64,000 bases of DNA from Bacteroidota bacterium (GCA_014584605.1 JACTMO010000066.1:42923-106922), one strand, 5' to 3'. Positions 3,463 to 52,535 are shown, numbered from the stretch's first letter. A program made the numbers and translations. The notes: generated by a model not told the origin, from the sequence alone.

Positions 3463-3476
3463 ACGAATGCGTTGGA

Positions 3477-26211: not shown

Positions 26212-26262
26212 ACCGGGCCGCCCCACCGGCCTACCTTTGGCGGCGCCCAAGGCGTACCCCTC

Positions 26263-30148: not shown

Positions 30149-31736
30149 TCCGGGTCATTCCTTCCACCTGCACGGCGGGCAGCAGGCGGGTCTCACGGCT
30201 CAGTTCACGTCCATGGTCCGGGGCAATGGCCGTCAGCACCTCCTCGATGGCGGCATGGCCCTCGGCCTCGGTGCGCACGTGATAGCGGGCGCCCGGCTCC
30301 AGCACCATCAGGTATCGACCCGTGGCGGCGTTGGTGTTGTACACGCCCAGGATCTCCTCGCGGGCCTCGTCCTCCACCACGATGCGCGCCCGCAGCGGTG
30401 CGTCGAGGTGGTCCGTCACAAGGCCCCGCACCACGAAGTACTCCAGCTGGCTCGAAGGGAAGATCACCTGGTAGATGTCCTGCGCTCCCAGCCCGCCCGG
30501 GCGCTCCGAGGAGAAGTAGCCCGTGGTGCCGTCCTCGCTGAGGCAGAAGTAGATGTCGTCGTTCACCGTGTTCAGCGGGTAGCCCAGGTTCTCCGGATCG
30601 CCCCAGCTGCACTGGTCGTGGTCCAGCATGATGCTCTTGAAGATGTCGTACCCGCCCATGGTGCCGTGCCCATTGGAGCTGAAGAAGAGCGTGGTGCCGT
30701 CGCTGTGCAGGAAGGGTGCGTCCTCGTCGAACGGCGTGTTGATCGTGGGGCCGAGGTTCAGCGGAAGGCTCCACGTCCCGTCGGGCAGACGGCGGATGCG
30801 GTACAGATCGCGCCCGCCGAAGCCGCCCGGCCGGTCGCTGGTGAAGTAGATCTCCTCCCCGTCGGGGCTCAGCGTCGCGCTGGGCTCATGGTGCTCGCTG
30901 TTGATCCGGTCGGTCATCCGTTCGGGCCCGCTCCACTCACCCGCCGCACGTCTGCTCTCGAACAGGTCGCCGCTCACCAGCCCCTGGCCGGTGCGATAGA
31001 CGATCATGCCGTTGCCATCGGCGGACAGGCCCACGGTGGCGTCCTGCAGGGCCGTGTTCAGCGGCGCCCCTGCGTTCACCGCGTTGGACCAGATCTCGTC
31101 CACCCGGCGTGCCGTATAGATGTCCTCGAACCACTGCCCATCGGGGTCCTTCCGACCGCCGGTGGAACCTTCGCGGCGGGAGGTGAAGTACATCGTGTTG
31201 CCGTCCGCCGTCACCAGCGGGCAGTAGTCGTGCGCCGGGGAATTGACCAGGGCGCCCAGGTTGCGCACCGTCAGATCCACCGGTTGACGCACCAGGGCCT
31301 TGGCATTGCGGCAGATGGCGATGGCGCGGTCCACTTCCGCATCGCCCAGCATACGGTGCTTCACGGCCTTGTACCGACCAAGCAGGTCGATGGCCTCGTC
31401 GAAGCGCTCCTGCCGGTGCCGGGCCAGCCCCAGATGGTAGGCGGCTTCGGGGTGGCCGTGCCGCAGCGCCCGCTCGAACAACGGGGCGGCCTTCTGGCGC
31501 AGGCCGGGGATCCGCGCATAGCACAGGCCCAGCTCATGCGCCACCTCGGCGAAGCTGGTGTCCACCAGCTCCAACCGGCGATAGATCTTGGCCGCCTCCA
31601 CGACGTCCTCCGCGGCCAGCAGCACCTTGGCCTCGTCCAGCATGCGGTTGTGCACACGGGTGTAGTTGGCCTGGCCCATGGCGGTGAGCGGGGCGGCCGT
31701 CAGCATCAGGATGGGGATCAGGTAGCGTTCTCGCAT
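30138..31736 (-). CDS. TPR plus PD40 (TolB-like WD40) repeat protein of the SprB-locus accessory type
   Basis: N-terminal TPR region, then three PD40 repeats (YFTSDRPGGFGGRDLYRI, FFSSNGHGTMGGYDIFKS, YFSSERPGGLGAQDIYQV). Confidence 0.75.
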   Translation of the reverse strand: MRERYLIPILMLTAAPLTAMGQANYTRVHNRMLDEAKVLLAAEDVVEAAKIYRRLELVDTSFAEVAHELGLCYARIPGLRQKAAPLFERALRHGHPEAAYHLGLARHRQERFDEAIDLLGRYKAVKHRMLGDAEVDRAIAICRNAKALVRQPVDLTVRNLGALVNSPAHDYCPLVTADGNTMYFTSRREGSTGGRKDPDGQWFEDIYTARRVDEIWSNAVNAGAPLNTALQDATVGLSADGNGMIVYRTGQGLVSGDLFESRRAAGEWSGPERMTDRINSEHHEPSATLSPDGEEIYFTSDRPGGFGGRDLYRIRRLPDGTWSLPLNLGPTINTPFDEDAPFLHSDGTTLFFSSNGHGTMGGYDIFKSIMLDHDQCSWGDPENLGYPLNTVNDDIYFCLSEDGTTGYFSSERPGGLGAQDIYQVIFPSSQLEYFVVRGLVTDHLDAPLRARIVVEDEAREEILGVYNTNAATGRYLMVLEPGARYHVRTEAEGHAAIEEVLTAIAPDHGRELSRETRLLPAVQVEGMTRNGR

Positions 31737-31747
31737 GTGTTCCAGGT

Positions 31748-36280
<4,533 letters not shown>

Positions 36281-36375
36281 TCCGCCCCTTCCTACGGCGA
36301 CCGGGCCGTGAAGGATACCGGGGAACCCTTGTGATCGACCGGCGTACAACGGCCATCGACCAGCATCCTCCCATC

Positions 36376-37857
36376 ATGGAACGATACGACCTCTGCGTCA
36401 TCGGAGGCGGCCCCGCCGGATATGCGGCCGCCATGCGCGCCATCGACCTGGGCCTGCGCACCCTGCTGGTGGAGAAGGACCGCATCGGGGGTACCGGCAT
36501 CTACAACGGCGCACTGATGTCCAAGACCTTGTGGGAGATCGCCCAGCGGGTGGCCGGGACCAACGCCATGGTGCGCACCAGGGGCATCCCACCCTTCCAG
36601 CCGTCGTGGTCGGGCATCACCCGCACGGTGAACGATGCGGTGTTCGAGCGCAAGTATCTCTACGCCTGCCACATGCAGCTGCTCGAGAGCCAGGGCCATC
36701 TGTTCCGGCACGCCCGGGGCAGCGCTTCCTTCCTCGGGCCGCATCGCCTGTGCATCGATCTGGCCGGCCGTCGCCGGGAGGTCGAGGCCGAACACGTGGT
36801 GATCGCCACCGGCTCGCGCCCGCGGTCGCTGCCCGGCCTGCAGGCGGACGAGCGGCGCATCCTCACCAGCGACGGCATCTTCCGGCTGGACGAGCTGCCG
36901 GAGAGCATCGTGATCGTCGGCGCCGGGGTCATCGGCTGCGAGTTCGCCACGATCCTCAGCCACCTGGGCCGCACCCGCGTCCACCTCATCGACCGCGCCG
37001 AACGCATCCTGCCCTTCGAGGACGCCGACATCAGCGAACTGGTGGCCGACAACCTGGAGCGGAACGGCGTAGTGATCCACCGCGCGGCCAAGCTGGAACG
37101 CCTGGAGGCCATGCCCCACGGCGTGGAGTACGACCTGAGCTACGCGAACGGCGGCACCGAACGCGTGGTCGTGCAAAAGGCCCTGCTGTCGGTGGGGCGG
37201 TCGCCCAACCTGCAGGGACTGGGCCTCGAGGCGGCCGGCCTCACCCTGGACCCCCGCACCGGCGCCCTGGCCGTGGACGGCATCCGCACCGCCCAGGATC
37301 ACATCCTGGTGGTGGGCGACGCCACCGGCAGCAACATGCTGGTGAACCTCGGTGAACTGGAAGGTCGGCATGCTGCGGAGCTCATCGCCGGGCGCCAGCC
37401 CGCACCCATCAGCTACGGCCAGGTCAGCACCATCATGTTCCTGGACCCCGAAGTGGCCGGTGTGGGCCTCAACGAGCAGGAATGCCGCAAGCGCGGCATC
37501 GCCTACCGCGTGGCCCGCATCGACTACAGCTGCCTCGCACGCGCCATCGCCATGCGGCGCACCCAGGGCTTCTTCAAGCTGCTCGTCACGGACGACGCGG
37601 ACATGCGCGTGCTGGGCATGCGGGCCGTGGGCGAGCACGCCTCCAGCGCCATCGAGGCCGTGGCCCTGCTCATGCACATGGGGCAGGGCATCCGGCACCT
37701 GGCCGAGATGGTGCACCCCCACCCCAGCATCATCGAAGGCGTGCAGGAGTGCGCCCGCACCTTGATGGGCAACGGCATCTTCAAGCCCGAGGTGTTCGGC
37801 GACCGGATGGAATGCCGCAGCTGGCGCCCCTCCCCGACCGTCGAACGCGCCGCCTGA
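36376..37857 (+). CDS. FAD/NAD(P)-binding pyridine-nucleotide-disulfide-oxidoreductase-family flavoprotein lacking the redox-active CxxxxC
   Basis: MERYDLCVIGGGPAGYAAAM… (FAD site); the usual GGTCLNVGC position reads GGTGIYNGALMSK with no Cys; NAD site …IVIVGAGVIGCEFA…; dimerisation domain present. Confidence 0.75.
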   Translation: MERYDLCVIGGGPAGYAAAMRAIDLGLRTLLVEKDRIGGTGIYNGALMSKTLWEIAQRVAGTNAMVRTRGIPPFQPSWSGITRTVNDAVFERKYLYACHMQLLESQGHLFRHARGSASFLGPHRLCIDLAGRRREVEAEHVVIATGSRPRSLPGLQADERRILTSDGIFRLDELPESIVIVGAGVIGCEFATILSHLGRTRVHLIDRAERILPFEDADISELVADNLERNGVVIHRAAKLERLEAMPHGVEYDLSYANGGTERVVVQKALLSVGRSPNLQGLGLEAAGLTLDPRTGALAVDGIRTAQDHILVVGDATGSNMLVNLGELEGRHAAELIAGRQPAPISYGQVSTIMFLDPEVAGVGLNEQECRKRGIAYRVARIDYSCLARAIAMRRTQGFFKLLVTDDADMRVLGMRAVGEHASSAIEAVALLMHMGQGIRHLAEMVHPHPSIIEGVQECARTLMGNGIFKPEVFGDRMECRSWRPSPTVERAA

Positions 37858-38988
37858 TCAAGGGGTCCCGGGGTCCTGGAACCGGGGGTCGTTCACGAAG
37901 TCGTGGTCCGTGAGCGCGTTCAGGAAAGCCACCAGCGCCGCCTTGTCCGAGGCCGGCAGTTGCAGCCCTCCCTGCGTGTACTTCATGAAGGGGCTGATGG
38001 TCTCCGATGGCTTGCCGCCCGAGTTGTAGTGCTCCACCACCTGCTCAAGCGTCGCGAACCGACCATCGTGCATGTAAGGCCCCGACAAGGCCACGTTGCG
38101 CAGGCTGGGCACCTTGAACTTGGCGCGGTCCAGCGGATCGCCGGTGACCTCGAAGCGGCCCATGTCCGTGAAGACCGAGTCCAGGCCGTTGTTCTCGAAC
38201 TGGCCGTTGGTGAACAGCCCGCCCGCATGCGTGTGGCAGTGGAAACAATCGGCGCCCCACTGGCCGCCCTGGCCGGCGGCCGGGTCGCCACCTTCCAGCT
38301 GGGTGAGGATGAATCCGCGCTGCTCCTCCTGGGTGAACACCGCCTCCCCGCGCGCCACCTTGTCCACCTTGGAATTGGCGCTGATCATGGTGCGCAGGAA
38401 CTGCCCGAGGGCCTTGGCCACCAGGGTGCTGTCGATCACGTCGGTGTTGAACGCCCGGATGAAGAGGGCCCGGTAGGCGCTGTCAGCCTGCAGCTCGGCC
38501 ACCGCGTTCGGCCAGGCCTCATGCATCTCCACGGGATCGATCACCGGCATCAGCACCTGCTGTTCCAGGGTCGGCTTGCGCCCGTCCCAGAAGAAGCTGG
38601 TCTCCCAGCCCAGGTTCATCAACGCCATGCTGTTGCGCCGCCCCTGCAGGCCATCGATGCCCAGGCTGAAGGCGTTGGGCGCATCGCTGAAGGCGTTGGC
38701 CGGGGCATGGCAGCCCGCGCAGCTCTGCGTGTTGTTGCCGCTCAGTCGCTCCTCATAGAACAGGTAGCGGCCCAGCTCCACGCCCCGCACCGTGATCGGG
38801 TTGTCCGGCGGAACCACCATCGGAGGAAAGTTGGCCGGTGTCACCAGGGGGTACGGCGTGGGGTCGTACACGGGGACCCCGCTGCCACCACCGTTGGAGG
38901 GCTCGTCAGGGCCGGGTTTGCGACAACCGGCGATCGCCGTCAAAAGGACGGTCACAGCGGTCAGGATGCGGAGGTTCCTCTTGGTCAT
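37858..38988 (-). CDS. Di-heme cytochrome-c peroxidase (CCP/MauG family) lipoprotein, MbnH-like
   Basis: Lipoprotein signal MTKRNLRILTAVTVLLTAIAGC; two heme sites, CAGCH and CFHCH; CCP fold motifs (…VPSLRNVALSGPYMHDG…). Confidence 0.85.
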   Translation of the reverse strand: MTKRNLRILTAVTVLLTAIAGCRKPGPDEPSNGGGSGVPVYDPTPYPLVTPANFPPMVVPPDNPITVRGVELGRYLFYEERLSGNNTQSCAGCHAPANAFSDAPNAFSLGIDGLQGRRNSMALMNLGWETSFFWDGRKPTLEQQVLMPVIDPVEMHEAWPNAVAELQADSAYRALFIRAFNTDVIDSTLVAKALGQFLRTMISANSKVDKVARGEAVFTQEEQRGFILTQLEGGDPAAGQGGQWGADCFHCHTHAGGLFTNGQFENNGLDSVFTDMGRFEVTGDPLDRAKFKVPSLRNVALSGPYMHDGRFATLEQVVEHYNSGGKPSETISPFMKYTQGGLQLPASDKAALVAFLNALTDHDFVNDPRFQDPGTP

Positions 38989-39980
38989 GGCACTTGGTCC
39001 AGGGGACGTTCGTCGGTGAGTGCGTGCAGGAAGGCCAGCAGGTCGGTGCGCTCCTGGGCCGTAAGGGTGAACGGGCCCAGCAGCGGATCCTTGTTGGGGT
39101 GCGCCAGCCCGCCCGAGGCGAAGTGGTCCACCACCTCTTCCAGGGTGGCCATGGCCCCGTCGTGCATGTACGGAGCGGTGCGCGCGATGTTGCGCAGCGT
39201 GGGCACCTTGAACTTGCCCTCGTCGGCGGGGTCGAGCGAAATGCGCGCCCGGCCGGGGTCGGCATAGGTGAGGTATTGCCCCACGTTGCGGTAGCTGTGG
39301 TCGCTCAGGTCGAAACCGCTGTGGCATCCGGTGCAACCCGCCACCGGACCCGAGAACAGCTGCCATCCGTTCGCCTCGCTCGTGGTCAGGGCCATGCTGT
39401 CGCCCTCGTACAGGTAGCGGTCGAAACGCGACCAGCCGCTGATCAAGGTCCGTTCGTAACTGGCGATGGCCCGGGTGATCACATAGGGGTCCAGCGCGCG
39501 GCCGTAGGCCAGCTGGCTCAGGCTGCGGTAGGGCTCCTGGTCGCGCAGTTCCCCGGCCAGAACGAGCACGTCGTGGTCCATCTCGTGCTCATCAAGGATC
39601 GGCGCCAGCACCTGCATCTCCAGGTTGGGCACACCGCCGTCGCGGAACAGTTCCGGATGGTAGGCCACGTTGGCCAGGGTGGGTGCGTTGCGCATCCCCG
39701 GCTGCTGATCCACCCCGAGGCTCAGGGCCACCGTGTCGCTGAAGGCATGGTCCGGGAAATGGCAACTGCCGCAGCTCACCGTGCCCGTGCGCGAGAGCCG
39801 CGGCTCAAAGAAGAGGTGCTTCCCCAGTTCCACCGCAGGCCGCGTCAACGGGTTGTCGCCCGGCACGGGCACTGCGGGCATCCACGCCGGAACCTCGAGC
39901 GGAAAGGGTTCCGTGGCCATGGACTGCGGAAGCGGTCCGTCCTTGCGGCAGCCCACCAGCCCCAGGACCGTCACCGCCAT
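38985..39980 (-). CDS. Di-heme cytochrome-c peroxidase (CCP/MauG family), second copy, MbnH-like
   Basis: MAVTVLGLVGC lipoprotein-type start; heme motifs CGSCH and CTGCH; …VPTLRNIARTAPYMHDG…. Its stop overlaps the start of the downstream peroxidase. Confidence 0.8.
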   Translation of the reverse strand: MAVTVLGLVGCRKDGPLPQSMATEPFPLEVPAWMPAVPVPGDNPLTRPAVELGKHLFFEPRLSRTGTVSCGSCHFPDHAFSDTVALSLGVDQQPGMRNAPTLANVAYHPELFRDGGVPNLEMQVLAPILDEHEMDHDVLVLAGELRDQEPYRSLSQLAYGRALDPYVITRAIASYERTLISGWSRFDRYLYEGDSMALTTSEANGWQLFSGPVAGCTGCHSGFDLSDHSYRNVGQYLTYADPGRARISLDPADEGKFKVPTLRNIARTAPYMHDGAMATLEEVVDHFASGGLAHPNKDPLLGPFTLTAQERTDLLAFLHALTDERPLDQVP

Positions 39981-39994
39981 CAACGACCAGGGTC

Positions 39995-40762
39995 TCACTG
40001 CACCTTGATGCTGCCCAGTACGTTGTCGCTGAAGCGCATCGCCAGCGGCATGTTGTCGCCGTGGGCCTGATGGTCCGTCACCAGGTCGATGGTGTCCACC
40101 GCATTGTGAAAGAACCGGTCCACTTCCAATTGCAGCACCAGGTCGGTGGTATCCCCGCCGTCCACGGTGAAGGGGGCCGCGAAAGCCAGGTCGCGCACCC
40201 GGTAGCAGGGATCCATGCCGCTGTGGATGGAGAACAGGTTCGTGGGCACGCCCGTACCGTTGGGGTCCGTGTCGTAGCGCCCATCGAACATCACGAAACG
40301 GTAGCCCGTGGCCCAGGTCCAGTAGGTGCCGTTGCTCACGCTCAAGGGATGCCCCACCGGATAGAGCACCGGATCGGTGGCGTTGAGGGCTGCCGGCACG
40401 CCCAGGCCCAGATGAAGACCGCTGTATGTGCCCGCTTCCGCCTCGAAAAGCTCTTCCGTTCCACCGTTCAGGGCATCGAAAAGCGCGATATCGGCCAGCT
40501 CCGTCGCCCCGCCAGGGCCCGTGAGGCGCAATTCGGCCAGGTATAGTTTCAGCAGTTCCACCTGCGTTCGGTAGTTGGTCACGTTCAGATGGACCGATCC
40601 GGCCTGCAGGGGCTGTCCCTGCCAGGTGGCTTCCACTTTCAACCGGACAAGCCCTTGCGGGCCGTCCGTCCCATAGGGCTTGTGGCAGCCGACCAACAGG
40701 GCCATGCCACAGGACAATGCAACGATGGCGACGGAACGATGGGTACGGTTCTGGTTCATCAT
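39995..40762 (-). CDS. Periplasmic lipoprotein, putative MbnP-family (copper-binding partner of the MbnH-type peroxidase), copy 2
   Basis: Signal plus lipobox (…ALSCGMALLVGC|HKPYG); conserved block …GTYWTWATGYRFVMFDGRYD…DRFFHNAVDTIDL…. The MbnP call is by context (upstream of the di-heme peroxidases) and memory of the family only. Confidence 0.45.
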   Translation of the reverse strand: MMNQNRTHRSVAIVALSCGMALLVGCHKPYGTDGPQGLVRLKVEATWQGQPLQAGSVHLNVTNYRTQVELLKLYLAELRLTGPGGATELADIALFDALNGGTEELFEAEAGTYSGLHLGLGVPAALNATDPVLYPVGHPLSVSNGTYWTWATGYRFVMFDGRYDTDPNGTGVPTNLFSIHSGMDPCYRVRDLAFAAPFTVDGGDTTDLVLQLEVDRFFHNAVDTIDLVTDHQAHGDNMPLAMRFSDNVLGSIKVQ

Positions 40763-40898
40763 GGCAGTTGTTCCCGGTCTTGCTGCTTTTCCGGAAATTC
40801 AAAGATAAGCGCACCCTCCTCACTACCGGCCTGAGCCATGTCAGGTACGACGAACAGATCCCCGTACTCTTCAATGCAACCGGATCCCGCCGATCCCG

Positions 40899-41651
40899 TC
40901 ACTCCACCGACATGCTTTGGAGCACGTTGTCGGTGAAACGCATGGCCAGGGGCAGATCGTTGCCGTGCGTCTGGTTCTCCGTGGCCAGGTCGATCGTATC
41001 CAGGGCGTTGTGGAAGAAACGGTCCACGTCAAGACGGACGAGCAGTTCGGTGGTGTCCCCGGCCTGCACGGTGAGGGGGGCCGGAAGGCTGAAGTCCCGC
41101 ACGCGGTAGCACGGGTCCATGCCGGTCTCGAAGGTGAACAGGTTCGGAGGCGTGCCCGCACCGTTGGGATCGAGGTCGTACCGCCCATCGAACATCACGA
41201 AGCGATACCCCGTGGCCCAGGTCCAATAGGTTCCGTTGCCCAAGCTCAGCGGATGCCCCACCGGATAGAGCACCGGATCGGAGGCGTTGAGGACCGCCGG
41301 CACCCCCAGGCCCAGATGCAGGCCGCTGTATGTGCCCGCTTCCGCCGCGAGCACCGTGTCCGTTCCTCCGTCAAGGGCATTGAAGAAAGTGATCTCGGCC
41401 AGTTCGCTCGCCCCGCCCGGACCGGTGAGCCGCATTTCCGCCAGATACAGCTTCAGGACATCCACCTGGGTCCGATAGCCGCTCACGTTGGCCGCCAACA
41501 TCCCGGTCTGCACGGGCTGCCCCTGCCAGATAGCCTCCACCTTCACCCGCACGTGCCCTTGAGGACCACCCACACCGTAGGGCTTGTGGCAGCCTGCCAG
41601 CACGGCGGCCGCAGCGATGAGCAATACCGGGGAGCGGAACATGGGTCGCAT
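40899..41651 (-). CDS. Periplasmic lipoprotein, putative MbnP-family, copy 1 (paralog of 39995-40762)
   Basis: MRPMFRSPVLLIAAAAVLAGC|HKPYG…; about 75% identical to the downstream copy over its whole length (…GTYWTWATGYRFVMFDGRYD…DRFFHNALDTIDL…). Confidence 0.45.
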   Translation of the reverse strand: MRPMFRSPVLLIAAAAVLAGCHKPYGVGGPQGHVRVKVEAIWQGQPVQTGMLAANVSGYRTQVDVLKLYLAEMRLTGPGGASELAEITFFNALDGGTDTVLAAEAGTYSGLHLGLGVPAVLNASDPVLYPVGHPLSLGNGTYWTWATGYRFVMFDGRYDLDPNGAGTPPNLFTFETGMDPCYRVRDFSLPAPLTVQAGDTTELLVRLDVDRFFHNALDTIDLATENQTHGNDLPLAMRFTDNVLQSMSVE

Positions 41652-41963
41652 GGGAGGTCGGTCCTGGTGAAAGGATGCGTTCGGAAGGCGGTCCGTTGCC
41701 TGAACGCCAAAGTTATTCAGCGGCTCCAAGATCATCCGATCATGGGCGTTGCACAAGTGCTCGCAACGGATGGACCGTTCCCATTGAACCCTCGGCCAGT
41801 GATCTCAAAGGGGCTGGTCATGGATCGGTATGCATCAGCGTCCATCCCTGGTTCCGCACATTCCCGCGAAGGCGCTGCCCGGCGCATGAACAAGATCCGA
41901 TGACCCTCCCGGCACCCCGCGTTGGCATCGCTCCCCGCGACCGGTCCTCTACCTTCGAACCCC

Positions 41964-44900
41964 ATGCTCCAGGTGCTGCACAGCTCGGCCGGCTCGGGCA
42001 AGACCCACGCCCTGGTGAAGCGCTATCTGCTGCTGGCCCTCCGGCCTGAAAGGCGCACGGCCTACCGCAGCATCCTCGCCCTCACCTTCACCAACAAGGC
42101 CGCCGGCGAGATGAAGGAGCGCGTGCTGCACTACCTGCGCATGCTGGCCGATCGTGCCCATGACGACCCGCGCATCGCCGACCTGCTCGAAGCGCTCCAC
42201 ACCGAACACGGCATGGACCCCGATGCCGCCGTGATCCAGGCCGACGCCGTGCTGCACCACATGCTGCATCACTGGTCCGACCTGTCCATCACCACCATCG
42301 ACGCCTTCGTGCGCCGACTGGTGCGCCCCTTCGCACGCGACCTGCAACTGGACCAGGAACTGCGCATGACCACCGACCAGAGCTGGTACCAGGAACGCGC
42401 GGTGGACCTGCTGCTGGAAGCCGCCGGGCATGACCCCGCCCTTACCGAGGTGCTGGTGGCCGCCTGCAGCCGCCTGGTGGAGGACGAGGCCCGATGGACC
42501 CCGGCCGCGCCCTTCCGCGAGCTCGTGAAGGAGCTGAACAACGAAGAGGCGGTGCGCCACCTGGAACAGCTGTCCGCCGTGGATGCCCGGGCCCTGCTGC
42601 GCCAAGAGGACGCGCTGCGCGACGCCATCCAGGCTTTCCGCGAGGAGGCCCATACGCTGGGCCGCTCCGCGTTGGGCGCGCTTCGGAGGGCGGAAGTCGA
42701 CCTGGGGGAGCTCGCCCATGGCAAACAAGGTTTCATCAAGGTCCTGAACGACCTGGTCGCCTTCGACAAGGATCCGATCGCCGTGGGCACCAACGCCGGA
42801 AAGCCGCTGACCACCGGGGTGTGGTGGAGCGGTGAGGCCTCCAACGCCGACCGCGAGGCCCTGAAAAACCTGGCGCCGCAGCTCACCCAGGTGCTCACCA
42901 CCGTGCAAGGCTGGCAGGAACAAGGCCGGTTCACCGACCATTGGCTGCGCATCCTCATCCGTAAGGACCTGATGGCGATGGGCGCGATGAGCGCCCTGGC
43001 CGGGTCCTTGCGGAAGGCCAAGGAGGAGGACGGCGTCACCTTCTTCCAGGACCTCACCCGCGCCGTGGAACGCGTGGTGCGCGAGGAACCGGTGCCCTTC
43101 CTCTACGAGCGCCTGGGCCAGCGCTTCCAGCACTTCCTGATCGACGAGTTCCAGGACACCTCGGTGATGCAATGGCACGCCCTGCTGCCCCTGGCGGAGA
43201 ACGCACTGGCCAACGGCGGTTCGGTGCTGCTGGTGGGCGATGCCAAACAGGCCATCTACCGCTGGCGCAACGGAGAGGTCCGCCAGTTCAAGGAGCTGCC
43301 CGCGCTGCATGGGCGCGACCAGCTCGCCGACGGCGCGCGCCGCGAAGCCTTCCTGAAAAGCTCCTTCGAGCCGGTGCCCCCGCTGTGCGACAACCACCGC
43401 TCCTCGGCGACCATCGTCCAGTTCAACAACGGGCTCTTCGACCGGTTGCGCAACACGCTGCCGGAAGACCTGCGCCCGATCTACGACCAGCAGGCTCAGA
43501 CCGCGCGCAAGCCCCCCGGCGGCCTGGTGCACCTGGAGGTGATCCCCAAGGAACCCGATGGCGAGGGACCATGGAACGAACGCTGGCTGTTGCGGCACGT
43601 GGCCGACTGCCTCGCCGACGGGTTCCGCGCGGCCGATATCGCCGTGCTGGTGCGCACCGGCGCTCAGGGTGCCTGGGCGGCGGGAACCCTGAGCCGCGCC
43701 GGGCATCCCGTGATCAGCCCCGACGGGCTCAGCCCGAGCGGCGATCCGGTGGTGGACCTGCTGCTCGCCCTGCTGCGGCTGGACCATCGTGCGGACGACC
43801 GCACGGCCCTACAGGCCCTGACCGCCGGCGTGGCCGCCGGGATCCTCGCTCCGGAACTGCTCCACCCGCCCGCGAACGCTACGACCCGAACCGCGTTGGA
43901 ACGGCTGCACCGCTGCCTGCCTCCCTCCGCCCGGCCCGCCTCCACCCTGCTGGACCGCGTGCTGGGCCATGTGGAACGCTGCGGCCTCGACGCCGCCAAC
44001 GATGCCTTCCTGAACGCGCTGCTCGAAGCCGTGCGCGAGCACCAGCAGAACCACGGTCACGATCCGGCGGGGTTCCTCGAGCACTGGGCGCGCACCTACG
44101 CCAACCGCCCCATCACCGCACCCGCCGGCATGGACGCCGTGCAGGTGATGACCGTGCACAAGGCCAAGGGGCTGCAGTTCCCGGTGGTGCTCATACCGGG
44201 CACCAACATGAGCAACCCCAACAGCGCCACCAAGGTCTGGACCGCTCCCGGTGCACTGGCCCCCGATCTGCCCGCGGCCCGCATCTCTTTCAAGGGCCGC
44301 CGTGCACCTGCGATCAAAGCCGTCACCGAGGAACTGGACCTGCAGGTCCTCGATGCGCTGGACCTGCTCTATGTGGCCTTCACCCGGCCTGAGCAACGTC
44401 TGTACGCCGCCGTGCCCCTGATGCACAGCGACGCGTTGAGCAAGGGTGTGCTCGAGCATCTGAAAGCCATGGGCGGCAGCGAGGAGCAGGGCCTGATCAT
44501 CGGGGAGCGCAGCGCCGCAGCCGCCCACCAGGCCGCTGCGGAGCCCGGCTCCCTGCTGCGCACCCTGCCACCCGGCGGCGGCGTGCAGGCGATGGCGCGC
44601 GATGCGTTGCGCCCGGACGCGGCGGAGGGCCCACCCTCCCGGCGTGCGATCGGCAAGGCGCTGCACGGTCTGCTCGCCCGGGTGCGTACCGGCGCCGACC
44701 TGCACCGGGCGATGGAGGCCGCGGTGGCCTGCGGCGACCTGAACCCGGAGGATCGCGACCGCTGGAGCGCGCCGCTCGCCGCTCTGCTGGACAAGCCCGA
44801 GCTGGCCCCGTGGTTCGGTCCCGGCCTGGAGGTGCTCACCGAAGCCCCGTTGATCCTGGCCGACGGGACCACGCTACGCCCCGACCGGATCGTCCGCAAT

Positions 44901-45062
44901 GCCCAGGGTTGGGGCGTGCTCGACATCAAGACCGGCGGCCCGCACGCCGCCCAGGCCGACCAGGTGCGCGGGTACATGCAGGTGTTGCGCACCGTGACCG
45001 GAGCAGCCGTGCACGGGGCCCTGCTCCATCTGGCCACTGGCACCCTCGAGCCTGTCGCATAG
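41964..45062 (+). CDS. UvrD/Rep-type helicase fused to a C-terminal PD-(D/E)XK nuclease (AddA/RecB-like)
   Basis: Walker A in MLQVLHSSAGSGKTHALV; helicase motifs (…LTFTNKAAGEM…, …VDEFQDTS…, …VGDAKQAIYRWR…, …MTVHKAKGLQFPVV…); C-terminal nuclease (…WGVLDIKTG…). Confidence 0.8.
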   Translation: MLQVLHSSAGSGKTHALVKRYLLLALRPERRTAYRSILALTFTNKAAGEMKERVLHYLRMLADRAHDDPRIADLLEALHTEHGMDPDAAVIQADAVLHHMLHHWSDLSITTIDAFVRRLVRPFARDLQLDQELRMTTDQSWYQERAVDLLLEAAGHDPALTEVLVAACSRLVEDEARWTPAAPFRELVKELNNEEAVRHLEQLSAVDARALLRQEDALRDAIQAFREEAHTLGRSALGALRRAEVDLGELAHGKQGFIKVLNDLVAFDKDPIAVGTNAGKPLTTGVWWSGEASNADREALKNLAPQLTQVLTTVQGWQEQGRFTDHWLRILIRKDLMAMGAMSALAGSLRKAKEEDGVTFFQDLTRAVERVVREEPVPFLYERLGQRFQHFLIDEFQDTSVMQWHALLPLAENALANGGSVLLVGDAKQAIYRWRNGEVRQFKELPALHGRDQLADGARREAFLKSSFEPVPPLCDNHRSSATIVQFNNGLFDRLRNTLPEDLRPIYDQQAQTARKPPGGLVHLEVIPKEPDGEGPWNERWLLRHVADCLADGFRAADIAVLVRTGAQGAWAAGTLSRAGHPVISPDGLSPSGDPVVDLLLALLRLDHRADDRTALQALTAGVAAGILAPELLHPPANATTRTALERLHRCLPPSARPASTLLDRVLGHVERCGLDAANDAFLNALLEAVREHQQNHGHDPAGFLEHWARTYANRPITAPAGMDAVQVMTVHKAKGLQFPVVLIPGTNMSNPNSATKVWTAPGALAPDLPAARISFKGRRAPAIKAVTEELDLQVLDALDLLYVAFTRPEQRLYAAVPLMHSDALSKGVLEHLKAMGGSEEQGLIIGERSAAAAHQAAAEPGSLLRTLPPGGGVQAMARDALRPDAAEGPPSRRAIGKALHGLLARVRTGADLHRAMEAAVACGDLNPEDRDRWSAPLAALLDKPELAPWFGPGLEVLTEAPLILADGTTLRPDRIVRNAQGWGVLDIKTGGPHAAQADQVRGYMQVLRTVTGAAVHGALLHLATGTLEPVA

Positions 45063-45065
45063 CCC

Positions 45066-45518
45066 ATGGTCACCTGGCGCACCCTCCCGTTCCAGGCGCT
45101 CGACGGCAGCACGCTGTACGATGTCCTGCGGCTGCGCACCGATGTGTTCGTGGTGGAGCAGAACTGCCCCTACCCTGAGCTGGACGACCGCGACCGCTCG
45201 GCGCTGCACGTGATCGGCCGCGACGCGGACCAGCAGGTGGTGGCCTACGCCCGCATCCTTCCACCGGATGAGGAAGGCCTGCCCACCGTGGGCCGCGTGG
45301 TGGTGCGCGCCGCCCTGCGCGGCACCGGTCTGGGCCACGTGCTGATGCGCGAAGTGCTCGCCGCGCTCCGTTCCCACCATGGCAGCGTGCGGAGCAGGAT
45401 GGCCGCACAGGCCCATCTGGAAGCCTTCTACGCCGCCCACGGATACCGACGCCAGGGCGGGGTGTTCGACCTCGACGGCATCCCGCACATCGCGATGCGG
45501 CTCAGCGTACCAGGGTGA
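45066..45518 (+). CDS. GNAT-family N-acetyltransferase (ElaA-like)
   Basis: …VFVVEQNCPYPELDD…, …VGRVVVRAALRGTGLGHVLM… (acetyl-CoA binding R/Q-x-x-G-x-G/A). Confidence 0.7.
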   Translation: MVTWRTLPFQALDGSTLYDVLRLRTDVFVVEQNCPYPELDDRDRSALHVIGRDADQQVVAYARILPPDEEGLPTVGRVVVRAALRGTGLGHVLMREVLAALRSHHGSVRSRMAAQAHLEAFYAAHGYRRQGGVFDLDGIPHIAMRLSVPG

Positions 45519-47646
45519 TGATGCCCGTGTAGGCCCGGCGCTCCGGTCCATGCTCGGCCAGCCACGCCTTGTACGTGTACACACCGACCGGCAGCCCCGC
45601 ACCGTCCCACCCGGCCTTCGGGTCCTCCGTGTGGAACAGGCGCGTGCCCCAGCGATCGAAGATGGCCAGCTCATACGCACGCGCACCGATGACCACCGGG
45701 AACCACACGTCGTTCAACCCATCGCCATCGGGGGTGAAGGCGCTGGGTGCATGGAAGAGGGAACCCGTGACGATGACCCGGATCCGCGCGGTGTCCACGC
45801 AACCCAGGCCGCTGGCCACCACCTGCACCACCTCGTAGGTGCCCGCCTCCTGGAACGAGATGGTGAATTCCGGTGTGGTGAAGGTGCTGCCCGCCACGGT
45901 GTAAAGCCAGCTGTCGGCGTTCACCGAAGCGTCGTGGATGCTGACCACGGGATCGAGCACGTCCACCACCGGCGTGCTGGTGTACAGACCCGCCACGGGC
46001 AGGTCCCACACCGTCACGGCCCCGGGCCGCAAAAGGCTCACCGTATCGATGCACCCGCTGTCGGTCATCACCGTGAGGCGCACGTCGTACTGGCCTTCCA
46101 CCGTGTAGGTGTGCACCGCGAGGCTGTCGGTGCTTCCAGCGCCATCGCCCAGGTCCCAGGCGAAGCGCATCGGGGTCCAAGCCGTGCTGAGGTTGTCGAA
46201 GCGCACCTCCAGCGGCAGGCAGCCCATGGTGTCGGTGGTGAAGAGCGGCACCGGAGGTGGGAACACCCGCACCGTATCGGTGTAACTGTCGGTGCAGCCG
46301 TGGTCGGAGACGGTGACGGTGACCACCTGGGTGCCCGGCTGGACGAAATGGGCGGCGATGGTCTGCCCGCTCAACTGCTGGGGGACCGCACCGGCCCCGA
46401 GGTCCCACTGTGCGGGCGCCTGCGGGGTGAAGTTGCCGGTGACCTCCAGGGGCACGGGACCGGCGCCGAGGCATTGGATGGGCGGCGGCACGAACACAGG
46501 GTCCAGCGGCGGATGGACCTGGAAGCTCGCGAAGCTGGTGTCCGCGCAAGGCCAGCCGGGGTTCACCACCAGCATCACGGTGAAGGTGCCGGTGTCGCCG
46601 TACGTGTGAACGGGGGCGAACAAGCTGCTGGTGTCGGTGTTGCTGTTGGGGTCCCCGAAGTCCCAGAAATAGCTGTTTCCGCCGATGCTCTGGTTCATCA
46701 GGTCCACCTGGTAGCCGTCGCAGAAGGTCTGCTGTTGCTGAATGGAACTGAGGATGGTGACCATGCACGGCACGGCGTCGAAACGGAGGTCACGCCGCAC
46801 CTCGCTCAACAGCACGCCCGCCCGGTACTCCTTCACGCACACCCCCACCACGTAGCTGCCCGCCTGGGTCGGTGTCACCGTCAACATCCCGCTCACGGGG
46901 TCGATGGCCAGCGGGGGGCTGGCATCCATCTGATAGGTCTGCGAATAGCCCGGGGCCCAGAGCACCGGCGTGTACGGCGGACCGGTGGGCGGCGATGGGG
47001 CCGGGTTGAACGGATCGCCACCGGTGTACGGCGTGCAGAGCTCATACACCAACTGGTCGCCATCCGGGTCCGTCGCCGAATGGTCGAAGCTCATGTTCTG
47101 CCCCACGCACAGGGCGATGGGCGGATACGCGTTGAACACCGGGCTGGAATTGGCCCCGGTCTGGTTGACGTTGGGCACGGCCACCGTGCAGGTGAGGCCC
47201 TCATCGCCCGGGTTGGCCAGGTTGAGGATGGTGGGCGTACGGCAGCAGCGCTGATAGCTCACCACGTAGCCGCCGGGGATGGGCGGCAGGTCCAGCACGG
47301 CGCTGTACGCGGCCTCCTCCACGCAGATGGTGGGCGGTGCCGTGAGGCAGGGGTTGTTGAGCACCACCGGCACGGGCGTGGCACCGGGGAAGGTGGCGTT
47401 CTGGGAGAACAGGTAGGTGCCTGAAGCATCGAAGACACCCAGCTCGGCCTGCAGGTCGAAGCCCGTGCCGTTCACGTTCCCGGGGCCGCAGTCGCGGTAG
47501 AGCGTCAGGGTGAACAGGTAGCTGTCCCCGCCCTGGTGCGCGTAATGAAGCTCGCCACCGAGGATGTGCGTGGCCAGGGCCGCGAAGGGCTTCAGCACGA
47601 TCCCGATCAGGAGAAGCACGCGCATCATCCGAGGGAATGACGACAA
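45502..47646 (-). CDS. Secreted PKD-repeat protein with a gliding-motility 'type B' T9SS C-terminal domain
   Basis: Signal peptide MSSFPRMMRVLLLIGIVLKPFAALA; PKD-like repeats; C-terminus …FTPDGDGLNDVWFPV…FDRWGTRLFH…GWDGAG…GVYTYKAWL…GIITLVR. Confidence 0.75.
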   Translation of the reverse strand: MSSFPRMMRVLLLIGIVLKPFAALATHILGGELHYAHQGGDSYLFTLTLYRDCGPGNVNGTGFDLQAELGVFDASGTYLFSQNATFPGATPVPVVLNNPCLTAPPTICVEEAAYSAVLDLPPIPGGYVVSYQRCCRTPTILNLANPGDEGLTCTVAVPNVNQTGANSSPVFNAYPPIALCVGQNMSFDHSATDPDGDQLVYELCTPYTGGDPFNPAPSPPTGPPYTPVLWAPGYSQTYQMDASPPLAIDPVSGMLTVTPTQAGSYVVGVCVKEYRAGVLLSEVRRDLRFDAVPCMVTILSSIQQQQTFCDGYQVDLMNQSIGGNSYFWDFGDPNSNTDTSSLFAPVHTYGDTGTFTVMLVVNPGWPCADTSFASFQVHPPLDPVFVPPPIQCLGAGPVPLEVTGNFTPQAPAQWDLGAGAVPQQLSGQTIAAHFVQPGTQVVTVTVSDHGCTDSYTDTVRVFPPPVPLFTTDTMGCLPLEVRFDNLSTAWTPMRFAWDLGDGAGSTDSLAVHTYTVEGQYDVRLTVMTDSGCIDTVSLLRPGAVTVWDLPVAGLYTSTPVVDVLDPVVSIHDASVNADSWLYTVAGSTFTTPEFTISFQEAGTYEVVQVVASGLGCVDTARIRVIVTGSLFHAPSAFTPDGDGLNDVWFPVVIGARAYELAIFDRWGTRLFHTEDPKAGWDGAGLPVGVYTYKAWLAEHGPERRAYTGIITLVR

Positions 47647-47687: not shown

Positions 47688-47975
47688 TCAGCGTGCCACA
47701 CGCGCGGCCATCGCTTCGTACTCCGCGGCTGGTACCGGCACATAGGCCCCGCCCCCACCGGCGAGCATCTCCATCACCCGCAACCGCTCGGGATAGGCGC
47801 GCGCCTCCACGCTGTGCCGCACCACCCGCGTACCGATCAGCTGCAGCTCCTCGAAGCGGTCGGGCGCATCGATGCGGTAATAGTTGGTGCCGTGGGCCGA
47901 CCGCCTGTACTGGGGCAGCGCATCAGGCACACCGAGGGGTTCGTTCACGCCGCTAATTTGCACGCCCCATGGCAT
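47688..47975 (-). CDS. Small hypothetical ORF (95 aa) in a divergent promoter region
   Basis: MPWGVQISGVNEPLGVPDALPQYRR… has acceptable composition but no recognisable domain. It may not be expressed. Confidence 0.25.
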   Translation of the reverse strand: MPWGVQISGVNEPLGVPDALPQYRRSAHGTNYYRIDAPDRFEELQLIGTRVVRHSVEARAYPERLRVMEMLAGGGGAYVPVPAAEYEAMAARVAR

Positions 47976-50665
47976 TCCTGCACCTCCTGGCCGAGCAACT
48001 GCACCACCATCACGGCGCCGATACGGCCCGGGTGGCCGTGGTGCTGCCCAGCCGGCGCGCAGGCCTGCACCTGCGGCGCCATCTGGCCCAGGTGCATGGC
48101 GGCCCGTTGTGGAGCCCCGACCTGCTCACGCCCGACGGCTTCCTGGAACGCCTCTCCGGCCTGCGTGAGCAACCCGCCCACCTCACCCTGCTCGAACTGC
48201 ACGCCATGCACCGCGCCCTGAAAGGACCCGCTGCGGACGACCTCCACCACTTCCTGGCCTGGGCCCCCACGGCCCTGCACGACATGAACGAAGTGGACGA
48301 GCATCTGCTCGACCCCGAACTGGCCTATCGCGACCTGCGGCACATTGAGGAGATCGATGCGTGGAGCTACCGGGGCGGCAGCCTGAGCGAGGGCCAGCAG
48401 CGCCTTGCACACCACTGGGCGCACCACGCGGCCCTGCATCGCGGACTTGCCGACCGACTGCTGCCCCGGGCCGTGGGCACCCGCGGCCTCCTTGCGCGCC
48501 GTGCGGCCGCCGTGGTGGCGGATGCCGCCGCTCCGCTTCCCTGGACCGCGGTCTGGTTCGCCGGCCTGAACGTGCTGTCGCCCGCCATGCAACGTGTGAT
48601 GGACGTCCTGCGGGAACGCGGCCTCGCCCATTTCGCTTGGGACGCCGACACCCATTACCTGAACGACCCGCTCCAGGAGGCGGGCCGCGCCCTGCGCAAG
48701 GCCATCGACCGCCACGGACCGGGCGTGCTGCCCTTCAGCACACGCATCGCCACCGACCCGCCCCGCATGCACACCATCGCCGCACCCAACACCATGGCCA
48801 TGGTGCATGCGGCCGTGCAACAGGTGATGGACCTCACGGAGGACGAGCGTGCCCGCACCTGCGTGCTGCTGGCCGATGAGGACACGCTGCTGCCCTTCCT
48901 GAGCCTGCTGCCCGCTTGTGGGCCCGTGAACATCACCATGAGCATCGCCCTGCCGCAGCTGCCGCTCCATGGCTTGTTCCAACGGCATGCCCGCCTGCGC
49001 GCCGATGCCGACCCGCGTGGTTCCCGGCTTCACGACCTGCTCGCCTTCCTGGACCACCCGGTGTGGGCGCGGGCGGATGGCTTCGATGAACTGCGCGACC
49101 GCGTCGCCCGGGCGCGGCAGGGACGCATGCGCAGCGAGGTGTTGCTGGACGAACTGCAGGGCCCGCTGGCCGATGCCCTTCGCCGGGCCCTCGCCACAAC
49201 GGGGATCGACGGCGTCCGGGCCCGCGACGCCTTGGTCGAGGCCGTCACCGCGGCCCAGGACGACCCCTTCGTTCTGGAGCAGGCCCACCGCATCGCGCAC
49301 GTGCTGGACCAGCTGGCCGCCGCCCTGGCCTGGAGCGGCGACACACCCGCGGAGGCCGGCGCCCTGGGCCTGCTGGACCGCCTGCTGCGGCTGGCCCGTG
49401 TGGACCTGCACGGCGAACCCATGCATGGGTTGCAGGTGATGGGCATGCCGGGATCACGCGCCATCGACCACGAGCGCGTGATCGTGGTGGGCGCCAACGA
49501 GGACATGCTCCCGCGGGCCGACCCGCCGCAGAGCTTCATCCCCGCCGACCTGCGCCATGCCCTGGGGTTGCCCCTTCGCGCCGAGACCGAAGCCGTGGAG
49601 GCGCACACCTTCATGCGCCTGCTCCACCATGCCCGGGAGATCACCCTGCTGTACGTTTCCGGCAGCGATGCGGGCCGGGAGCGCAGTCGCTTCATCGCCC
49701 AGCTGGAGCACGAACTGCCCGCCCTCGTACACCGCGCCAGCCTGCGGCCCGCCATGCCCCTGCGGCCCAGGGCACCCCTGGAGATACCGCTGACCCCTGA
49801 GCTGCACCAGCGCCTGCAACGCAAGGTGGAACGCGGCCTCAGCCCCACCGCGCTGACCGACCTGATGACCTGCCCGCTCCACTTCGTGTTCCGCCACGCC
49901 TGGGACATCGCCGAAGATCCCGCCACCGGCCCGGCCCTCGCGGACAACGAAATGGGCACTCTGGTGCATGCGGCCTTCGAAGCGCTGTACAGCCCCTTCG
50001 TGGGCCGCAGCATCGACCCAGAGGCGTTGCTGGTCGGCCTCCCCGAGGTCCTGCACGGCCTGGACCGGCGACTGCCTCCCGGGCTGAACGCTGCGGAAGG
50101 CCCCGCCCTGTTGCAGGTGGGCATGGCCGTGAAGGCCATCCGCCGTGCCGTGCTGCACGAGGTCGAGGCCTTGCGCAAGGGGCAGGGCATCCACCTCGTC
50201 GGCATCGAGGCCATGCTTTCCGGCGAACTGCCCGCCGCCGCCCATGGCCAGGACCATGTGGTGCGGCTCCACGGGCGCATGGACCGCATCGACCGGCGCG
50301 ACGGGCAGGTGCATCTGGTGGACCTCAAGACCGGCCGGGTGGAGCCCGGCAAGCTCGCCCTGTCGCTGCCCGATGCGCTCACGCCGGACCACGGCCAGGC
50401 CCTGCAGTTGCTCGTCTACGCCTGGCTCTGGCTCACCAACGACCCGGCCTGTCCGGCCGTCCGTGCCGAGCTCCGCCCGCTGCGCAGCGCCAGCGGTGGC
50501 GGCGTGCCGTTGGTGCTCAATGGGTCCGAAGTGATCCGCAGGGACCAGATGCCCCTGATCCAGGAGGCGGTGGGCGGCCTGGTGCGCAGCATGTTCGAGC
50601 CCGGAAGGCTCTTCACGCACCGGGCGAAAAGCAGGTATTGCACGCTCTGCCGGGCCGAGGCCTGA
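47969..50665 (+). CDS. PD-(D/E)XK nuclease family protein with a degenerate helicase-like N-terminus (AddB-like)
   Basis: 898 aa; the C-terminal nuclease/Fe-S region has Cys in …LMTCPLHFVF… and …RYCTLCRAEA. It is the likely partner of the AddA-like gene at 41964. Confidence 0.7.
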   Translation: MAFLHLLAEQLHHHHGADTARVAVVLPSRRAGLHLRRHLAQVHGGPLWSPDLLTPDGFLERLSGLREQPAHLTLLELHAMHRALKGPAADDLHHFLAWAPTALHDMNEVDEHLLDPELAYRDLRHIEEIDAWSYRGGSLSEGQQRLAHHWAHHAALHRGLADRLLPRAVGTRGLLARRAAAVVADAAAPLPWTAVWFAGLNVLSPAMQRVMDVLRERGLAHFAWDADTHYLNDPLQEAGRALRKAIDRHGPGVLPFSTRIATDPPRMHTIAAPNTMAMVHAAVQQVMDLTEDERARTCVLLADEDTLLPFLSLLPACGPVNITMSIALPQLPLHGLFQRHARLRADADPRGSRLHDLLAFLDHPVWARADGFDELRDRVARARQGRMRSEVLLDELQGPLADALRRALATTGIDGVRARDALVEAVTAAQDDPFVLEQAHRIAHVLDQLAAALAWSGDTPAEAGALGLLDRLLRLARVDLHGEPMHGLQVMGMPGSRAIDHERVIVVGANEDMLPRADPPQSFIPADLRHALGLPLRAETEAVEAHTFMRLLHHAREITLLYVSGSDAGRERSRFIAQLEHELPALVHRASLRPAMPLRPRAPLEIPLTPELHQRLQRKVERGLSPTALTDLMTCPLHFVFRHAWDIAEDPATGPALADNEMGTLVHAAFEALYSPFVGRSIDPEALLVGLPEVLHGLDRRLPPGLNAAEGPALLQVGMAVKAIRRAVLHEVEALRKGQGIHLVGIEAMLSGELPAAAHGQDHVVRLHGRMDRIDRRDGQVHLVDLKTGRVEPGKLALSLPDALTPDHGQALQLLVYAWLWLTNDPACPAVRAELRPLRSASGGGVPLVLNGSEVIRRDQMPLIQEAVGGLVRSMFEPGRLFTHRAKSRYCTLCRAEA

Positions 50666-52501: not shown

Positions 52502-52535
52502 GAGGGACAAAGATCGGCACGGGTACCTTTGGCCC

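Follow-up and report, generated by a model that had tools for sequence, protein, structure and literature searches.

A Bacteroidota gene cluster pairing MbnP-family lipoproteins with two divergent di-heme peroxidases

Four genes in a 64-kb window (the whole stretch of Bacteroidota DNA analysed here) probably make up a remote Bacteroidota counterpart of MbnP/MbnH, the system in which a di-heme enzyme converts a partner protein's tryptophan to a metal-binding kynurenine. They would act as a self-contained module for periplasmic maturation, with one di-heme enzyme, H2, as the likely oxidant and a second, H1, as an accessory. Both lipoproteins of the cluster, P1 and P2, belong to the MbnP family. 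The main puzzle appears to be H1, which is strongly conserved yet, as read from its sequence, has neither the Trp nor the Tyr thought essential for MbnH chemistry. Very few systems are known to build a kynurenine ligand out of the protein's own chain, and MbnP/MbnH is among them; the analysis defines a large Bacteroidota branch of MbnP proteins with lipoprotein anchoring, variable P and H copy numbers and no copper-gene context.

Cluster layout and gene order in relatives

All four genes run in one direction, as the initial annotation had it, and lie on the minus strand: P1, the upstream MbnP-like paralog (40899-41651; 250 aa, lipobox LAGC); P2, the second MbnP-like lipoprotein (39995-40762; 255 aa, lipobox LVGC); H1, a di-heme lipoprotein of the MauG/MbnH superfamily (38985-39998; 337 aa from a GTG start, LVGC), which gene callers begin at ATG 39980 to give 331 aa; and H2, an MbnH-like di-heme lipoprotein (37858-38988; 376 aa, lipobox IAGC). 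Tight packing with overlapping stops and starts holds for P2/H1 (GTGA) and H1/H2 (ATGA) but not for P1/P2, which are separated by a 136-bp spacer (40763-40898). A promoter-like box of the Bacteroidetes -7 type, TAACTTTG, lies 57 nt upstream of the P1 start (41708-41715, minus strand), and a second -7 box, TATCTTTG, lies within the spacer, 38 nt upstream of the P2 start (40800-40807, minus strand). The pattern TAnnTTTG has just five matches across the 64-kb window, the box upstream of P1 among them, and 43 of 83 P genes have it in the 150 nt before their start, compared with a background rate of 0.014 per 150 nt; one related locus, L001, has the same two-box layout as the window. Searches gave no sigma-70-type promoter, no convincing terminator and no Rfam match.

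The tandem P-P plus H-H set had been described as one arrangement, and it resolves into two events: an old, conserved triad P-H1-H2 and a recent duplication of P. The related genome loci number 80, and every one of them comes from uncultured Flavobacteriales; 71 keep the order P-H1-H2, and in all 80 P adjoins a MauG-like di-heme gene. H1 and H2 are just 40% identical, so the H-H pair is no recent duplication and the two are old paralogs; P1 and P2 are 71% identical, and their duplication is recent and lineage-specific. Copy numbers of P and H vary within the Bacteroidota branch. In sequences clustered at 50% identity, the P profile matches 586 clusters with E<=1e-30 and 5,669 with E<=1e-3; most public entries for these proteins read 'hypothetical protein' or 'cytochrome c peroxidase'. 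Flanks were compared by direct BLAST of the window's neighbours together with Pfam scans of the loci; all-vs-all clustering of flanking ORFs was dropped, as spurious high-GC ORFs and repeat proteins confused the result.

The lipoproteins as MbnP-family members

Both lipoproteins carry the GTYWTWATGYRFVMFDGRYD and DRFFHNA(L/V)DTIDL blocks that were first noted in them, and both score far above the Pfam threshold for MbnP (PF20243: P1 84.6 bits, P2 95.2 bits; cut-off 27), a domain present in all 54 homologs recovered by a word-index search. Aligned by hhalign, the P-family profile matches canonical MbnP with 99.1% probability (E 1.4e-18) and with WxW in register, so that P2 W148 falls on the first Trp of the canonical WxW, and P2 H180 on the His of the canonical HLGSTGC block. 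In the protein of Methylosinus trichosporium OB3b the first Trp of WxW is residue 174, by a numbering rebuilt from canonical sequences, and Trp174 is the kynurenine precursor (PMC11951088). The sole structural match of the predicted P2 model was PDB 7L6G, MbnP itself. A single-sequence search of PDB sequences with P2 gave no match and a profile search with P gave at best E 0.029, so the family assignment needed Pfam, hhalign and the fold comparison.

The relationship is a distant one, with P identity to the OB3b protein of about 17-19%. Against NCBIfam TIGR04052, the MbnP equivalog, the P proteins reach 37.4 and 44.5 bits through local matches around WxW only, below the cut-off of 140, whereas the canonical controls reach 291 and 321 bits (sequences of canonical MbnP and MbnH were drawn from plasmid records). 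The four-Cys motif is absent, mature P proteins having mostly 0-1 Cys against four invariant Cys in the canonical alignment. The C-terminal third of P, where the invariant CMS Met of canonical MbnP sits, is not alignable to it, and P has an invariant His234 where the canonical family has its CMS Met region. The His of the canonical 'NH' falls on the variable P position 128, as placed by the alignment, and the position equivalent to Met172 is Met or Thr in equal shares across the P family, with Thr in P1 and P2.

Conservation within the branch is strict at a few positions: W148, W150 and H234 are invariant in 83 of 83 P family members, and H180 is kept in 81. P2 retains all family invariants, namely N127, W148-T-W150 (window 40313-40321), Y154, H180 and H234. 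P1 has its WTW at residues 143-145 (window 41217-41225), but alignment and residue counts place a Glu (FETG) where the near-invariant His, equivalent to H180, is expected. P2 appears to be the canonical copy and P1 the diverged one; P1 is under purifying selection, with dN/dS of 0.19 relative to its L001 ortholog.

Two di-heme enzymes with different active sites

The heme motif pairs reported for the peroxidases are those found, CGSCH/CTGCH in H1 and CAGCH/CFHCH in H2, each a pair of CxxCH motifs in a CCP_MauG fold (PF03150 E 8.8e-52 for H2). As had been proposed from their placement, MbnH is the best curated family for both enzymes and their best solved relative (6E1C), clearly so for H2 (191 bits against 6E1C, next best 115) and narrowly for H1 (167 bits against MbnH, 159 against canonical bCcPs). 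Both fall short of equivalog status: on TIGR04039 (MbnH) H1 scores 264 bits and H2 250, under a cut-off of 362.85 that canonical controls pass with 494 and 559, and on the MauG equivalog the two reach 204 and 164 bits against a cut-off of 444. A neighbour-joining tree, computed with no bootstrap support and no MauG sequence included, puts H2 as sister to canonical MbnH and tentatively places H1 as basal.

The initial annotation had counted a lack of the MauG-type Tyr in the peroxidases against its own reading; H2 has this Tyr, but H1, which has neither it nor the inter-heme Trp, speaks against that reading. H2 has the inter-heme Trp134 (FWDG, window 38581-38592) and the axial Tyr321 (VVEHY, window 38026-38040), and H2-type orthologs keep the Trp in 70/70 and the Tyr in 69/69 cases. 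H1 has Arg119 at the position of the inter-heme Trp (FRDG, window 39636-39647) and Phe293 at that of the axial Tyr/Met (VVDHF, window 39120-39134); across 76 H1 orthologs, the first position is Trp in none and Arg in 67, and the second is Phe in 64 and Tyr in 10. All loci observed with Phe at the Tyr position either have H2 or end before H2 would be readable. The identity of H1 across the clade is 61-86%, that of P being 40-85%, and dN/dS is 0.08-0.19 in all four genes, with purifying selection strongest on H2 (0.08).

Canonical bCcPs (1IQC, 3O5C) share with H1 and H2 the fold, the two CxxCH motifs, the Ca-site residues and the peroxidatic E-M motif. Among those residues are N104, T274 and P276 of H1, which we take to correspond to the bCcP Ca site and which are invariant in the H1 alignment. 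Unlike bCcPs, neither enzyme has the distal His of the 'IGH' motif or the axial Met, the Met position being Phe in H1 and Tyr in H2, and H1 also lacks the inter-heme Trp. H2 shares with MauG, which acts on pre-methylamine dehydrogenase, a His-Tyr heme, an inter-heme Trp and the scheme in which a partner protein's Trp is oxidised; the MauG equivalog scores are low, however, no mau genes are present here and the substrate fold differs. A parallel for H1 is BthA of Burkholderia (6NX0, 6V59), a MauG-type di-heme enzyme likewise without the inter-heme Trp, although their sequence relation is weak (E 1e-11) and BthA has the axial Tyr but no Ca site, whereas H1 has lost the Tyr and keeps N104, T274 and P276. 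With its Trp replaced by Arg and its Tyr by Phe, H1 is a naturally occurring 'double mutant' among di-heme enzymes, kept under strong purifying selection; alongside sister enzymes in which the Tyr (R/Y) or both residues (W/Y) survive, it offers a natural series for the residue requirements of bis-Fe(IV), and its conservation as a second peroxidase raises the question of what it adds to the system.

A proposed maturation module and its alternatives

In the reading we favour, the P lipoprotein would be exported and then lipid-anchored, after which a di-heme enzyme and H2O2 would oxidise the first Trp of WxW (P2 W148) to kynurenine. Together with His180 and probably His234, the kynurenine would hold a single metal ion, most likely copper. 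H2 is the likely bis-Fe(IV) oxidant: its peroxide heme, free of distal His, is predicted to be five-coordinate, a Trp lies between the hemes, and the other heme is of the His-Tyr type. H1, whose lineage sits directly 3' of P and would be translationally coupled to it, is probably unable to stabilise bis-Fe(IV), because Arg replaces the Trp and Phe the Tyr; it is most likely sub-functionalised as an accessory that docks or escorts P, carries out a second, different oxidation or controls peroxide. In MbnP/MbnH of OB3b (7L6G, 6E1C; TIGR04052, TIGR04039) a secreted WxW protein likewise comes directly before a MauG-like di-heme enzyme: its kynurenine-precursor Trp, like one invariant His, aligns with P, H2 has the same inter-heme Trp and axial Tyr and the same lack of a distal His, and MbnH is the top sequence and structural match of H1 and H2. 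The window's proteins differ in that all are lipoproteins and that a second peroxidase paralog, H1, is conserved beside the first. MopE/CorA of methanotrophs, with MopG/CorB, offers another parallel, a kynurenine copper site encoded beside a di-heme peroxidase gene; its set of two His plus kynurenine could be mimicked by H180, H234 and W148, although its protein fold differs from the MbnP type (PMC11951088).

We regard as possible, though unlikely, that H1 stands for a new class of di-heme MauG-family protein, with Arg for Trp and no Tyr/Met sixth ligand, which would act on the MbnP-like lipoprotein together with the MbnH-like enzyme, either within a heterodimer or one after the other. The product might then be a Trp-derived site unlike the kynurenine copper site, or hold another metal, with P1 (His to Glu) and P2 as differently tuned acceptors.

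Whether H1 itself modifies P is a separate matter. Its lineage is the sole partner of P in some genomes (L090, L091 and L093, each retaining the Tyr), so H1, not H2, may be the true modifier, with H2 an added MbnH-like enzyme that has another substrate or a protective role. Besides those loci, in two of which (L091, L093) the only peroxidase also lacks the inter-heme Trp, the constant place of an H1-lineage gene directly 3' of P, where it overlaps the P stop codon, the higher conservation of H1 than of P across the clade, and the finding that Trp-less BthA still reaches bis-Fe(IV) (PMC11892367) all speak for such a role. We nevertheless think it improbable: the H1 of the window's clade has mostly lost the axial Tyr as well, the defining feature of the MauG type (PMC11892367), three loci (L072, L075, L076) carry P with an H2-type enzyme alone, and purifying selection acts on H2 more strongly than on the other three genes.

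We also give a low probability to a joint action of H1 and H2, in sequence or as a heterodimer, whose product would differ from the simple kynurenine copper site: W148/W150 might be doubly oxidised or cross-linked, or the site might bind a different metal. The invariance of both WxW Trp residues and the co-conservation of two distinct peroxidases in most loci would fit it, as would a ligand set unlike that of canonical MbnP (the four Cys missing, His234 invariant, Thr in place of Met172) and the lack of linked copper genes in window and relatives alike; MauG, moreover, carries out a six-electron oxidation in several steps. Some genomes nevertheless have the same P invariants and a single H gene, so a second enzyme is not obligatory for the family, and the cross-link is purely hypothetical. 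That the peroxidases are ordinary H2O2-detoxifying cytochrome c peroxidases beside unrelated adhesin-like or glycan-binding lipoproteins is very improbable, despite the near-equal bCcP and MbnH scores of H1 and the public annotations, given the missing bCcP axial Met and distal His in both enzymes, the strict gene order with overlapping codons across 80 loci and the membership of the lipoproteins in MbnP, not in an unrelated family.

The favoured maturation module would stand apart from copper genes. The window's SCO1 gene (25522-26211) and the gene called 'CzcA' at first had been joined with the cluster into one copper or redox module; the former lies 11.6 kb away, and the latter (1-3552), 34 kb away, encodes an AcrB/ACR_tran-family protein for which the evidence does not support the CzcA name. 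Distance and the unrelated genes between led us to reject a link to either. The reported absence of a TonB-dependent MbnT-like transporter held among the scanned ORFs of the window, and no copper-handling gene, TonB receptor or regulator is linked to the cluster in the window or its 80 relatives. Canonical MbnPH loci, by contrast, have Sco, PCuAC, a TonB receptor or DUF2946, none of which is adjacent to the cluster in the window or in relatives, and the methanobactin genes MbnA/B/C and the MbnT receptor, as in the canonical locus L085, are not near it. Because no copper, TonB or methanobactin gene is linked and SCO1 is so far off, the copper role is one suggested by homology only.

The genes next to the cluster encode an AddA-like helicase, a GNAT acetyltransferase, T9SS cargo proteins and a flavoprotein. 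This last gene, described as convergent and Cys-less, is indeed so (36376-37857): GGTGIYNGALMSK replaces the CxxxxC disulfide of lipoamide dehydrogenase, its best match, which scores below cut-off. A functional link to the cluster was rejected, the gene being convergent, more conserved than P and syntenic within the closer clade only; its adjacency follows general synteny and is lost in distant loci. Its stop codon directly abuts that of H2 (TGATCA).

Lipoproteins of the MbnP superfamily

The four genes at 37858-41651 all lie on the minus strand of the high-GC (~66%) window and encode P1 (40899-41651, 250 aa, lipobox LAGC), P2 (39995-40762, 255 aa, LVGC), H1 (38985-39998, 337 aa from a GTG, LVGC) and H2 (37858-38988, 376 aa, IAGC). 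Every product carries a lipoprotein signal, so all four are predicted lipoproteins; for H1 the GTG start is the more plausible, because the alternative ATG at 39980 leaves an 11-residue leader without charge. The sequence blocks and heme motifs reported in the initial annotation were found as quoted. Its tight packing with overlapping stops and starts holds for P2/H1 (GTGA) and H1/H2 (ATGA), but P1 and P2 are separated by a 136-bp spacer.

The two lipoproteins were proposed to be MbnP-like, and both exceed the 27-bit cut-off of the Pfam MbnP model (PF20243; 84.6 and 95.2 bits). On the NCBIfam equivalog TIGR04052 (cut-off 140 bits) they produce only local matches around WxW (37 and 44 bits), compared with 291 and 321 bits for canonical MbnPs taken from plasmid records. 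When PDB sequences were searched with the P lipoprotein as a single sequence, nothing matched, and a P-family profile reached canonical MbnP (7L6G) only marginally; profile-profile comparison with four canonical MbnPs aligned P2 residues 28-185 at 99.1% probability (E 1.4e-18). These scores, together with the differing residues described below, therefore place the P proteins within the MbnP superfamily and fold, outside the curated equivalog.

An N-terminal fragment and the alignment to 7L6G were used to restore the numbering of the Methylosinus trichosporium OB3b protein, in which the canonical WxW begins with Trp174. This residue aligns with P2 W148 and is reported to be converted to kynurenine in canonical MbnP (PMC11951088). 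W148, W150, N127, Y154 and H234 (P2 numbering) are invariant among 83 P-family members, and H180, which matches the His in the HLGSTGC block of canonical MbnP, is kept in P2 and in 81 of the 83. Unlike canonical MbnP, the P family lacks the four Cys, does not align to the C-terminal third with its invariant CMS Met, has a variable residue at the 'NH' His, and carries Met or Thr in equal shares (Thr in P1 and P2) at the Met172 position.

P1 and P2 (71% identical) are both under purifying selection (dN/dS 0.13-0.19, measured against the related locus L001), and they are non-equivalent: P1 has Glu (FETG) at the H180 position, a change also seen in the upstream copy of another genome with a tandem P pair (P0005). 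Each gene is preceded by a TAnnTTTG -7 box, at 41708-41715 (minus strand, 57 nt upstream of the P1 start) and 40800-40807 (minus strand, 38 nt upstream of the P2 start). The motif occurs five times in the 64-kb window, the others being at 3937-3944 (-), 26232-26239 (+) and 52524-52531 (+), and at least four of the five come shortly before a gene start. Across the family, 43 of 83 P genes have it within 150 nt upstream, compared with a background frequency of 0.014 per 150 nt. The positions in the window fit a Bacteroidetes -7 promoter element, even at 66% GC.

Two divergent di-heme peroxidases

H1 and H2 are both CCP_MauG di-heme proteins, only 40% identical to each other. Their proposed relationship to MbnH was supported: MbnH (TIGR04039) is the best curated family of both, at 264 and 250 bits (below the 363-bit cut-off; canonical MbnH controls reach 494 and 559), and H2 is clearly nearest to the MbnH structure 6E1C (191 bits; next best 115). 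The gene that immediately follows canonical MbnP in four RefSeq plasmid records (L085 5891-7051, L086 5783-6952, L087 5886-7037 and L088 5812-7083) is labelled 'methanobactin export MATE transporter MbnM'. Each product is ~385 aa with two CxxCH motifs, and the two that were scanned against the MbnH model scored 494 and 559 bits. The label looks like a systematic naming error.

Diagnostic columns of 76 H1-type and 71 H2-type sequences were compared with references. As in canonical MbnHs, H2-type proteins have Trp at the inter-heme position (70/70) and Tyr at the axial position (69/69). H1-type proteins never have this Trp (Arg in 67/76), and at the axial position 64 of 76 have Phe and 10, mostly from distant low-GC loci, have Tyr. 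The bCcPs have Met and a distal His, the latter absent from both H1 and H2. MauG-type enzymes are defined by His-Tyr ligation, and the inter-heme Trp is conserved throughout the family with BthA as the sole exception (PMC11892367). H1 retains both CxxCH motifs and the peroxidatic E-M motif, with a dN/dS of 0.15 and 61-86% identity across the clade. Its residues N104, T274 and P276, which we take to be those of the bCcP Ca site, are invariant in the alignment. A crude neighbor-joining tree, which carries no support values, makes canonical MbnH the sister group of the H2-type proteins and puts the H1-type proteins in a separate clade. H1 is a P-coupled, conserved paralog; having lost both Trp and Tyr, it is likely to have changed its role.

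The best-supported reading of the cluster is an MbnP/MbnH-type maturation module, in which H2 would be the MbnH-equivalent oxidant, W148 of P2 the kynurenine precursor, and H180 and H234 probable co-ligands; the resulting site would be like those in MopE and CorA, built from two His and a kynurenine. The function of H1, the enzyme that modifies P and the metal are all inferred, and copper is suggested by homology only.

Gene order across relatives

Scanning one genome per species for the pattern gave 80 loci, every one of them in a MAG of uncultured Flavobacteriales or Bacteroidota. The order P-H1type-H2type is found in 71, the contig ends after H1 in six, and three (L072, L075, L076) have P with an H2-type gene only. 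A recent P duplication like that of the window occurs in one locus (L001), and also in another MAG (adjacent pair IT228_03200/03205); an older, divergent upstream copy (P'), found in 16 loci, keeps WxW and H180 and usually lacks H234.

More distant P-family members (L089-L093) were also sampled, with the following residues at the Trp/Tyr positions of the H1-lineage gene: L089, P'-P-H1-H2, R/F; L090, P with a single H, W/Y; L091, P with a single H, R/Y; L093, P-P with a single H, M/Y; and L092, H2-H2-H2-x-P-P-H1, K at the Trp position in an H1 gene cut by the contig end. Except in the three H2-only loci, an H1-lineage gene lies directly 3' of P in all sampled loci, and it usually lacks the inter-heme Trp. 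The change from Tyr to Phe was seen in the sample only in loci that have an H2-lineage gene or end before one could be read.

The three tandem H2-lineage genes of L092 (217-3709) lie upstream of P-P-H1 on one metagenomic contig, so peroxidase copy number is highly variable in this family. In L092 (3715-4095) and L093 (2089-2466), P-P is preceded by a ~125-aa Cys-rich protein that has a hydrophobic N-terminal segment and matches no Pfam family, and a DUF4625 lipoprotein gene precedes P in L091 (6524-6922); neither was found in the window.

Genomic neighbourhood and copper context

On one side of the cluster, in the window as in L001-L070, is a divergent AddA-like UvrD helicase carrying a PD-(D/E)XK nuclease domain (41922-45062, +), and on the other a convergent flavoprotein (36376-37857, +). 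In distant loci Mpo1-like, YebC, TPR and T9SS-cargo genes replace these neighbours, so the adjacency reflects general synteny rather than function. The Mpo1-like (DUF962) membrane dioxygenase-family gene immediately precedes the P genes, and is co-directional with them, in distant low-GC loci (L065 6287-6967, L080 5593-6123 and also L067 6464-6934).

The flavoprotein, of the pyridine-nucleotide-disulfide oxidoreductase family, best matches lipoamide dehydrogenase (TIGR01350, 346 bits, below the 409 cut-off) and lacks the Cys pair, in line with the first description: it has GGTGIYNGALMSK at the position of that family's CxxxxC redox disulfide. Its stop abuts that of H2 (TGATCA), and it occupies the same place at 63-95% identity in ~55 related loci, and is thus more conserved than the P genes. 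Beyond the AddA-like gene lie a GNAT acetyltransferase (45066-45518), a CHU_C-type T9SS cargo gene (45502-47646, -) and a second PD-(D/E)XK protein, AddB-like in appearance (47969-50665, +).

The four canonical MbnP loci examined combine a single MbnH with TonB receptors, PCuAC, SCO or DUF2946, in agreement with the published context (PMC9426467), whereas no TonB receptor, Sco, PCuAC, CopC or DUF2946 gene was found next to the cluster in the window or related loci. The initial annotation had suggested that the cluster, together with SCO1 and CzcA, could be a copper or redox-handling module; the SCO1/SenC gene (25522-26211, +) is 11.6 kb and the AcrB-family gene (1-3552) 34 kb distant, unrelated genes intervene, and a link to the cluster was rejected for these reasons. 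Systems of this kind are known, and the P proteins already carry a Pfam label. Four features appear to be undescribed in the searchable literature: the conservation of P-H1-H2 as a triad, an H1 lineage without Trp and Tyr, a set of ligands in P that departs from the canonical one, and the lack of any copper context.

SCO1/SenC itself is flanked by genes for a DUF2490 protein and a PhyH-family dioxygenase (24813-27237, +), unlinked to the MbnP-like cluster. A T9SS-related block of three minus-strand genes (29147-36349), syntenic in relatives L082-L084, encodes PorP/SprF (29147-30148), a TPR/PD40 protein (30138-31751) and a 1533-aa protein that combines PKD repeats with a C-terminal domain of the gliding-motility type (31748-36349).
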